From the NCBI RefSeq assembly GCF_045037415.1, contig NZ_CP173438.1: a stretch of 64,000 nt of DNA. One strand, given 5' to 3'. Below the pieces are notes generated by a model. The model was not told where the DNA came from and made no database searches. It saw nothing but the letters and a program-made list of their open reading frames with translations. Shown piece by piece: positions 2,176 to 2,929 of this stretch (positions within the stretch are counted from its first letter, which is position 1; each line of letters begins with the position of its first letter). The position numbers and the translations under genes were made by a program. Origin of the DNA: Escherichia coli (lineage in GTDB: Bacteria > Pseudomonadota > Gammaproteobacteria > Enterobacterales > Enterobacteriaceae).

Positions 2176-2505
2176 ATGGTTAGCAGGAAACGTAATAGCA
2201 TTATTTACCGGTTTGCCAGTTTATTATTGGTGTTGATGTTAAGTGCCTGTAGCGCACTGCAAGGTACGCCACAGCCAGCACCGCCAGTAACGGACCATCC
2301 GCAAGAGATTCGCCGTGACCAGACGCAAGGGTTACAGCGAATAGGTAGCGTAAGCACGATGGTTCGAGGTTCTCCGGATGACGCATTAGCAGAAATCAGA
2401 GCGAAAGCTGTCGCTGCAAAAGCTGATTATTACGTTGTCGTCATGGTGGACGAAACCATCGTGACAGGACAGTGGTATTCACAAGCCATTTTGTACCGTA
2501 AATAA
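2176..2505 (+). CDS. bsmA: biofilm/peroxide-stress lipoprotein BsmA (YjfO), DUF1471 family
   Basis: Start placed at internal Met (MVSRKRNSIIYRFASLLLVLMLSACSAL, lipoprotein signal plus lipobox); ORF track begins upstream in-frame at 2077. Confidence 0.85.
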   Translation: MVSRKRNSIIYRFASLLLVLMLSACSALQGTPQPAPPVTDHPQEIRRDQTQGLQRIGSVSTMVRGSPDDALAEIRAKAVAAKADYYVVVMVDETIVTGQWYSQAILYRK

Positions 2506-2653
2506 ATCAGACAACTAACATAGTCAGCTTTACATTGCTTTGCGTCCCTATGCGTTTACCTGTGCACAATAAATTACCGGCTGGAAGCTCGGGCGTTTAT
2601 TACCGCGATGGAATGCCCTGCAACATGTGGGGAAACGAAAAATGGAGCTGACG

Positions 2654-2929
2654 ATGAAACAATTACTTGCCTCACCCTCGCTGCAATTAGTGACTTATCC
2701 TGCGAGCGCCACGGCACAGTCTGCAGAATTCGCCAGTGCTGACTGCGTGACGGGCCTGAATGAAATAGGTCAGATCTCAGTTAGCAATATTTCAGGGGAT
2801 CCGCAGGACGTGGAACGTATCGTGGCGTTAAAGGCCGATGAACAAGGTGCGTCATGGTACCGCATTATTACCATGTACGAAGACCAGCAGCCTGATAACT
2901 GGCGCGTACAGGCGATACTGTATGCGTGA
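2654..2929 (+). CDS. yjfN: DUF1471-family small secreted protein YjfN
   Basis: Start placed at MKQLLASPSLQ...; C-terminus ...WRVQAILYA is a paralogue-like match to the BsmA C-terminus (...QAILYRK). Confidence 0.85.
   Translation: MKQLLASPSLQLVTYPASATAQSAEFASADCVTGLNEIGQISVSNISGDPQDVERIVALKADEQGASWYRIITMYEDQQPDNWRVQAILYA

Follow-up and report, generated by a model that had tools for sequence, protein, structure and literature searches.

The window considered here is a stretch of 64,000 nt from a non-K-12 strain of Escherichia coli, in which two small genes, bsmA (yjfO) and yjfN, lie in tandem on the same strand (Table 1). A first-pass annotation of this DNA had proposed that both encode DUF1471 proteins, and Pfam, NCBIfam and the existing annotation all agree with that assignment. 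An identical stretch annotated in RefSeq has the gene order ulaG, ulaR, yjfP (-), bsmA (+), yjfN (+) and aidB (-), and its yjfN product is named "DUF1471 family protease activator YjfN". Many E. coli genomes are 100% identical to the window across bases 1900-3100, and of the 5426 complete genomes of the species 5424 have the bsmA-yjfN locus. The same genes, in the same order and between the same neighbors (yjfP and aidB), are present in K-12, where the locus is mapped in the opposite orientation to the window. Differences between the two versions are without substance: K-12 YjfN (b4188) is identical to the window protein at 91/91 residues, and K-12 BsmA (b4189) differs from it at 2 of 109 (I9V and R75K).

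Table 1. Features of the bsmA-yjfN locus, with nucleotide positions in the window and residue numbers in the encoded proteins
Feature	Position	Strand	Description
bsmA (yjfO)	2176..2505	+	Predicted DUF1471 lipoprotein precursor, 109 aa; ATG at 2176
BsmA, protein parts			Leader 1-24; lipobox L22-S-A-C25; Ser at +2; Pro-rich tether ~26-40; DUF1471 domain ~42-108; C-terminus YRK
bsmA-yjfN intergenic region	2506..2653		148 nt
CpxR-like box, putative, GCAAAGCAATGTAAA	2529..2543	-	One mismatch to GTAAA-N5-GTAAA; ~110 nt 5' of yjfN start
In-frame upstream ATG (MELT-)	2642..2653	+	Candidate minor alternative yjfN start
yjfN	2654..2929	+	DUF1471 protein, 91 aa; TGA at 2927-2929
YjfN, protein parts			Weakly hydrophobic leader 1-21 (MKQLLASPSLQLVTYPASATA/Q), encoded by 2654-2716; mature domain 22-91; C-terminus Y-A
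REP element, single	2955..2988	+	Between convergent yjfN and aidB

A REP element had also been noted just downstream of yjfN, and an exact match is indeed found there: the sequence GCCGGATGCGGCGCGAGCGCCTTGTCCGGCCTAC has 0 mismatches to the REP consensus. The consensus gave 0 matches in shuffled sequences and has its only match in the window at this site. The two 14-nt arms (2955-2968 and 2971-2984) form an imperfect palindrome with 79% complementarity, and the centroid fold of the yjfN-aidB spacer consists of the resulting hairpin alone. The 116 nt that separate the stop codons of these convergent genes are an ordinary place for a REP. The spacer as a whole folds no more stably than shuffled sequence (z=-0.17), the REP hairpin alone being robust, and the hairpin probably protects or terminates transcripts. 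An Rfam scan of the whole window detected nothing at or close to the bsmA-yjfN locus. Elsewhere it identified a Guanidine-II (mini-ykkC) riboswitch at 41729-41775 (-; 49.3 bits, gathering score 32), a tandem array of three tRNA genes at 26194-26489 (-), ~111 nt apart and equal in Rfam score, and a fourth tRNA gene at 55646-55718 (+).

Homology and fold of BsmA and YjfN

BsmA and YjfN are true ancient paralogs whose similarity is domain-wide. The Pfam model PF07338 (YdgH_BhsA-like, DUF1471; gathering threshold 27 bits) matches BsmA with 56.9 bits over residues 53-108 and YjfN with 63.4 bits over residues 35-90, and the NCBIfam BsmA equivalog model NF011433 gives the window BsmA 152.7 bits, above its curated cut-off of 100. 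The relationship had been recognized in the first-pass annotation from a C-terminal signature common to the two proteins, and both quoted ends (…VTGQWYSQAILYRK and …DNWRVQAILYA) are present in the translations. Similarity extends well past this short motif: a BLASTP alignment of the two covers 87 aa at 30% identity (E=4e-8), and hhalign of the orthologue profiles aligns BsmA 42-108 with YjfN 24-91 over 67 columns at 99.2% probability (E=2.6e-19). That annotation named a likeness confined to the C-terminal motif as the outcome that would refute it, and the alignment instead spans the domain.

The DUF1471 (YhcN/BhsA-McbA) family comprises alpha+beta domains of ~55-70 aa that are restricted to Enterobacterales, occur as several paralogs per genome and carry N-terminal export signals, a description that fits both proteins. 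Ten DUF1471 paralogs were recovered from K-12, and all named homologs of the family found here belong to Enterobacterales. Among the family members compared, the C-terminal QAILY strand is common to BsmA and YjfN only, and these two also have a hairpin loop three residues longer, a feature they share with YjfY and YdgH; YhcN, BhsA, McbA, YbiJ, YahO and RclB have neither the strand nor the longer loop. Two further characters set the pair apart from the other DUF1471 members of E. coli: BsmA is the only one with a lipobox and a Pro-rich tether, and YjfN is the only one with a hydrophobic terminal residue instead of K or R.

AlphaFold2 models of the two proteins have the same beta-alpha-beta-beta (alpha+beta) topology. 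In BsmA (mean pLDDT 88.4) the elements are E54-64/H67-80/E85-93/E99-108, and in YjfN (domain pLDDT ~90) they are E37-47/H50-63/E68-76/E82-90. Solved DUF1471 structures available for reference are those of SrfN (2ma8), YahO (2ma4) and the YdgH domains (2m2j and 4evu). The top Foldseek matches in the PDB for both models were YdgH domains (2m2j and 4evu) and SrfN (2jna and 2ma8), with TM scores of 0.66-0.79 against 2m2j, 4evu and 2ma8. A sequence search of the PDB with the YjfN profile returned, besides the expected SrfN and YdgH, spurious weak matches to protein A constructs. That adjacent yjfN and yjfO testify to expansion of the family by duplication was put forward by Eletsky et al. (2014; PMC4092069), who divided DUF1471 into ~12 subfamilies and noted its RcsF-like fold as well as its lack of the disulfide cysteines of RcsF. 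Taken together, it is very likely that the locus holds two ancient, Enterobacterales-specific DUF1471 (YhcN/BhsA) paralogs in tandem between yjfP and aidB, one of them a lipoprotein and the other a soluble protein.

Export signals and C-termini

The first-pass annotation assigned a lipoprotein signal to one protein and a conventional secretion signal to the other, and the division itself is sound, with a lipobox in BsmA and a leader ending in an A-T-A/Q site in YjfN. BsmA begins MVSRKRNSIIYRFASLLLVLMLSAC25-S, that is, with a basic n-region, a hydrophobic core (maximum 8-residue Kyte-Doolittle mean 3.04) and a lipobox, LSAC, that conforms to the pattern [LVI][ASTVI][GAS]C following a basic n-region and a hydrophobic h-region. 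The lipobox is conserved among orthologs and its Cys is invariant in those aligned, including the proteins of Escherichia, Yersinia, Pantoea, Pectobacterium and Rouxiella. At +2, every BsmA ortholog inspected has S, A, T, Q or G, and none has D. Acylation of Cys25 is predicted from these features and, since Ser occupies +2 and Asp is excluded there, so is sorting of BsmA to the outer membrane by the Lol system.

Cys25 is followed by a conserved Pro-rich tether, ALQGTPQPAPPV. The segment beyond it, PQEIRRDQTQGLQ, lines up with the N-terminal helix region of the remaining family members and is therefore part of the domain. A reading of the conserved BsmA segment HPQEIRRDQTQGLQ as a "linker" was rejected for its alignment with that same helix region and its pLDDT above 90. 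The combination of a Pro-rich N-terminal tether and this fold is reminiscent of RcsF, the outer-membrane lipoprotein sensor of the Rcs phosphorelay. The BsmA model superposes on RcsF structures 2l8y and 2y1b with TM scores of 0.57-0.66 in Foldseek, ranked after YdgH and SrfN; no sequence homology between BsmA and RcsF was detectable, so that the likeness is one of fold only. Whereas RcsF has essential disulfides, mature BsmA has no cysteine except the (predicted) lipidated C25, and membership of the RcsF family was rejected because the defining cysteines are absent from the mature domain.

Several BsmA alleles in E. coli and Shigella (P0131, P0145, P0175, P0186 and P0208) differ in length, from 101 to 117 aa, with the reading frame retained. 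The changes are duplications of 8 aa (ALQGTPQP or QEIRRDQT) and deletions of 8 aa, of 3 aa in the Pro-rich tether and of 5 aa in the helix (AKAVA), and they look like products of slippage at short direct repeats. Apparently disrupted alleles were seen in the representatives of other species: bsmA has a stop after codon 42 in Escherichia albertii NBRC 107761, a frameshift in Citrobacter koseri NCTC10786 and possibly an early stop after codon 5 in Enterobacter chuandaensis, where a downstream Met could rescue it; yjfN is intact in all three. A biofilm and peroxide-stress phenotype of BsmA was reported by Weber (2010), as cited in PMC4092069 and PMC4447067.

YjfN begins MKQLLASPSLQLVTYPASATA/QSAEF and has an intact A-T-A/Q site of the signal-peptidase-I type. 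Among orthologs this motif and the mature protein are highly conserved and the leader is variable, which is the pattern of a cleaved signal peptide. The description of the leader as a conventional secretion signal is only roughly right, as its hydrophobicity is atypically weak in Escherichia: the best 8-residue Kyte-Doolittle mean in E. coli YjfN is 0.90, compared with 2.2-3.4 for the leaders of the other nine K-12 DUF1471 proteins and ~2.5 for YjfN leaders of Citrobacter, Salmonella and Enterobacter. Given this poor hydrophobicity, efficient export of E. coli YjfN is not obvious from sequence, and its periplasmic location is taken from the literature. Across Escherichia the maximum lies between 0.9 and 1.4, hydrophobicity having been lost. 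The leader also looks degraded or shortened in Superficieibacter, Intestinirhabdus, some Pluralibacter and related lineages, with the mature part conserved. The loci concerned in these observations are L002-L006, L016, L021, L039, L059, L074 and L076.

The C-terminal residue of YjfN is A or V in 79/79 orthologs inspected, and the window protein ends …ILYA. The other nine K-12 paralogs end in K or R, and the proteins at the YjfN position in Nissabacter and Edaphovirga end in YR. Kim et al. (2018; J Bacteriol 200:e00519-17) are reported to ascribe to YjfN the role of a "suicide activator" of DegP, exerted through its hydrophobic C-terminal residue, and a later study citing that work found that YjfN activates both DegP and DegQ in the degradation of CsgA in vitro. 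Parallels exist in CpxP and in the C-terminal peptides of outer-membrane proteins that serve as ligands of the DegP and DegS PDZ domains; like them YjfN is reported to be Cpx-associated, to bind DegP by a hydrophobic C-terminus and to be degraded while stimulating proteolysis. CpxP is unrelated to YjfN in fold and family, and YjfN is described as an activator of DegP and not as an adaptor. The yjfN gene has also appeared, oddly, as a multicopy suppressor of a strain without cytoplasmic prolyl isomerases (PMC7461557).

Intergenic region and expression

In most genera the spacer between bsmA and yjfN measures ~125-150 nt. It carries a putative CpxR site, defined as a consensus match to GTAAA-N5-GTAAA, and of 79 orthologous intergenic regions, 75 have a box of this kind in the equivalent place. 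Expression data place yjfN in the CpxR iModulon, although no ChIP-exo peak made it a direct CpxR target (PMC7657598). A promoter and terminator scan of 1900-3150 found no sigma-70 consensus promoter, nor any intrinsic terminator between the two genes, its sole terminator-like match being inside bsmA on the wrong strand; this outcome says little either way. The 148-nt spacer presumably contains a promoter of yjfN's own, which is most likely Cpx-responsive. The bsmA promoter was bound and opened in vitro only by E-sigma-S, but rpoS dependence of bsmA was not seen in vivo in E. coli (PMC4447067). Elsewhere in the window, perfect matches to GTAAA-N5-GTAAA lie at 28354-28368 (+) and 42786-42800 (-), and the window holds 9 matches at ≤1 mismatch vs 3.2 expected.

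Ribosome profiling of initiation sites (Ribo-RET) detected a second peak just 5' of the annotated yjfN start (bioRxiv 10.1101/520783). Its position matches the in-frame ATG at 2642, whose MELT- extension includes the GGAG Shine-Dalgarno of the main start and is conserved in many genera, and this ATG is a possible minor alternative start of yjfN.

The interval has been a target of insertion in some strains. An ERIC-like element of 190-270 nt (…GTGAATCCCCAGGAGCTTACATAAGTAAGTGACTGGGGTGAGCG…) is inserted at the extreme 3' end of bsmA in E. coli SCPM-O-B-8794, Escherichia whittamii and Escherichia sp. E1V33 (L003, L005 and L006, respectively), where it changes the BsmA C-terminus from YRK to YSK and extends the spacer to 341-419 nt; the distance of the CpxR-like box from yjfN is unchanged in these loci. 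Two E. coli genomes have an IS1 in the interval instead.

Origin of the pair

When a single genome of each species was scanned, YjfN turned up in 148 stretches, and gene order was analyzed in the best 80 of these loci. The arrangement yjfP<-bsmA->yjfN-><-aidB was present in 79, the 80th being incomplete, so that the phylogenetic check suggested in the first-pass annotation finds a syntenic pair across at least 17 genera of Enterobacteriaceae: Escherichia, Citrobacter, Salmonella, Klebsiella, Raoultella, Enterobacter, Lelliottia, Leclercia, Kosakonia, Phytobacter, Pluralibacter, Yokenella, Trabulsiella, Superficieibacter, Intestinirhabdus, Silvania and Pseudenterobacter. Outside this group the picture is mixed. 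In Yersinia kristensenii, Rouxiella silvae and Pantoea, bsmA alone adjoins aidB, and the space would not admit another gene; in Pectobacterium polaris it is likewise alone, in the neighboring rlmB-rnr region, yjfP and aidB not having been called. A pair of bsmA and a yjfN-like gene is again found in Nissabacter (Yersiniaceae) and in Edaphovirga, where the YjfN-like proteins show 42-45% identity to E. coli YjfN and ~35-41% to BsmA proteins (E down to ~1e-16).

A third DUF1471 gene, yjfY, whose product falls with BsmA, YjfN and YdgH in the "long-loop" subgroup, lies nearby in K-12 (19517-19792 of its locus), outside the window and ~8 kb past bsmA beyond the ula operon. In Yersinia, yjfY (2152-2427 of its locus) directly adjoins yjfP-bsmA because the ula genes are absent. 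This placement is a hint that the region may have held an older cluster of DUF1471 genes.

The occurrence of bsmA alone in outgroups suggests that yjfN is the derived copy, although the same distribution could reflect repeated loss of yjfN and not ancestral absence. The lipoprotein gene bsmA would then be the older occupant of the locus, and a tandem duplication would have given rise to a copy that lost the lipobox and the tether. BsmA would be acylated at Cys25, sorted to the outer membrane and equipped with a single DUF1471 alpha+beta domain on a short Pro-rich tether; in YjfN, which has a signal-peptidase-I leader, this domain would be soluble in the periplasm. Later, in core Enterobacteriaceae, the yjfN copy would have lost its terminal basic residue, leaving a hydrophobic terminus that would dock on DegP and activate periplasmic proteolysis. 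We infer both the single origin of the two genes and the direction of the duplication; lipidation, outer-membrane location, Cpx control and DegP activation are in the same way deduced or drawn from the literature. As a complete history, in which duplication of bsmA and loss of the anchor were followed by recruitment of YjfN as a DegP activator under Cpx control, simply through loss of the basic end that bared an OMP-like hydrophobic C-terminus, and by a weakening of the leader in Escherichia (and likewise in Intestinirhabdus, Superficieibacter, some Pluralibacter and related lineages) that could render export inefficient or conditional, the scheme is tentative and less likely than not. Inefficient export of YjfN might be linked to its suppression of the strain without cytoplasmic prolyl isomerases (PMC7461557).

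An old duplication had also been the reading of the first-pass annotation. It is favored by synteny, by a common clade and by the 40% identity of the Edaphovirga YjfN-like protein to BsmA, but best matches among the K-12 paralogs are not reciprocal. The best paralog of BsmA is clearly YjfN (33.5 bits, the next scoring 21.6), whereas that of YjfN is YhcN (42.4 bits, 38% identity), followed by BhsA (30.8) with BsmA third (29.3), and NCBIfam models for YhcN and BsmA score YjfN at 51.8 and 51.0 bits. These values would be expected had yjfN come from a different, YhcN-like paralog that was inserted or translocated beside bsmA, making the adjacency coincidental. The neighbor-joining tree, built from 107 domains and 68 columns after a profile search of the whole library had yielded 510 family representatives, can be read both ways: BsmA and YjfN form a clade in the best tree and in 56 of 100 bootstrap replicates, and other subfamilies intrude into the group in the remaining 44. 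Against a separate origin stand the QAILY strand and longer hairpin loop common to the two proteins, and the less diverged Edaphovirga YjfN-like protein, which matches BsmA proteins (59 and 58 bits) more closely than YhcN (55 bits), although the order is reversed in Nissabacter (YhcN 53 bits, BsmA 46 bits). The asymmetry of the K-12 scores also fits a faster divergence of BsmA. On the whole, tandem duplication is the best reading, and we regard derivation of yjfN from another paralog as unlikely.

Conservation of the pair raises the further question of whether bsmA and yjfN constitute a co-transcribed functional module whose products cooperate, for example in DegP and outer-membrane protein quality control. 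The common strand, the lack of an intrinsic terminator between the genes in our scan, co-occurrence in 79/79 evaluable Enterobacteriaceae loci and the resemblance of the DUF1471 fold to RcsF, a lipoprotein that interacts with outer-membrane proteins, would all accord with such an arrangement. It is nonetheless highly improbable when set against the conserved CpxR-like box within the spacer and the separate regulons reported for the two genes (sigma-S for bsmA, the Cpx iModulon for yjfN). Nor are the genes inseparable: bsmA occurs without yjfN in four outgroup genera, some strains tolerate ERIC or IS1 insertions between them, and yjfN is intact where bsmA is broken in the representatives of E. 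albertii, C. koseri and possibly E. chuandaensis. Two paralogs under separate control, descended from one duplication, remain the reading we prefer.

The central points about this locus were already on record in RefSeq names and in published work (Weber, 2010; Eletsky et al., 2014; Kim et al., 2018). The observations added here, on the two genes in outgroups, the derived hydrophobic end of YjfN, conservation of the CpxR-like box and the weakness of the Escherichia leader, refine that knowledge and do not change it. Beyond confirming the annotation, the finding has little significance; it is correct and ordinary. The modest gain is a cleaner evolutionary picture, in which the lipoprotein would be the older protein at the locus and the soluble copy would have gained a hydrophobic C-terminus and a CpxR-like box. 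The unusually weak signal peptide of Escherichia YjfN is a property that can be checked experimentally. On this reading, the pair would provide a tidy small example of neofunctionalization after duplication.
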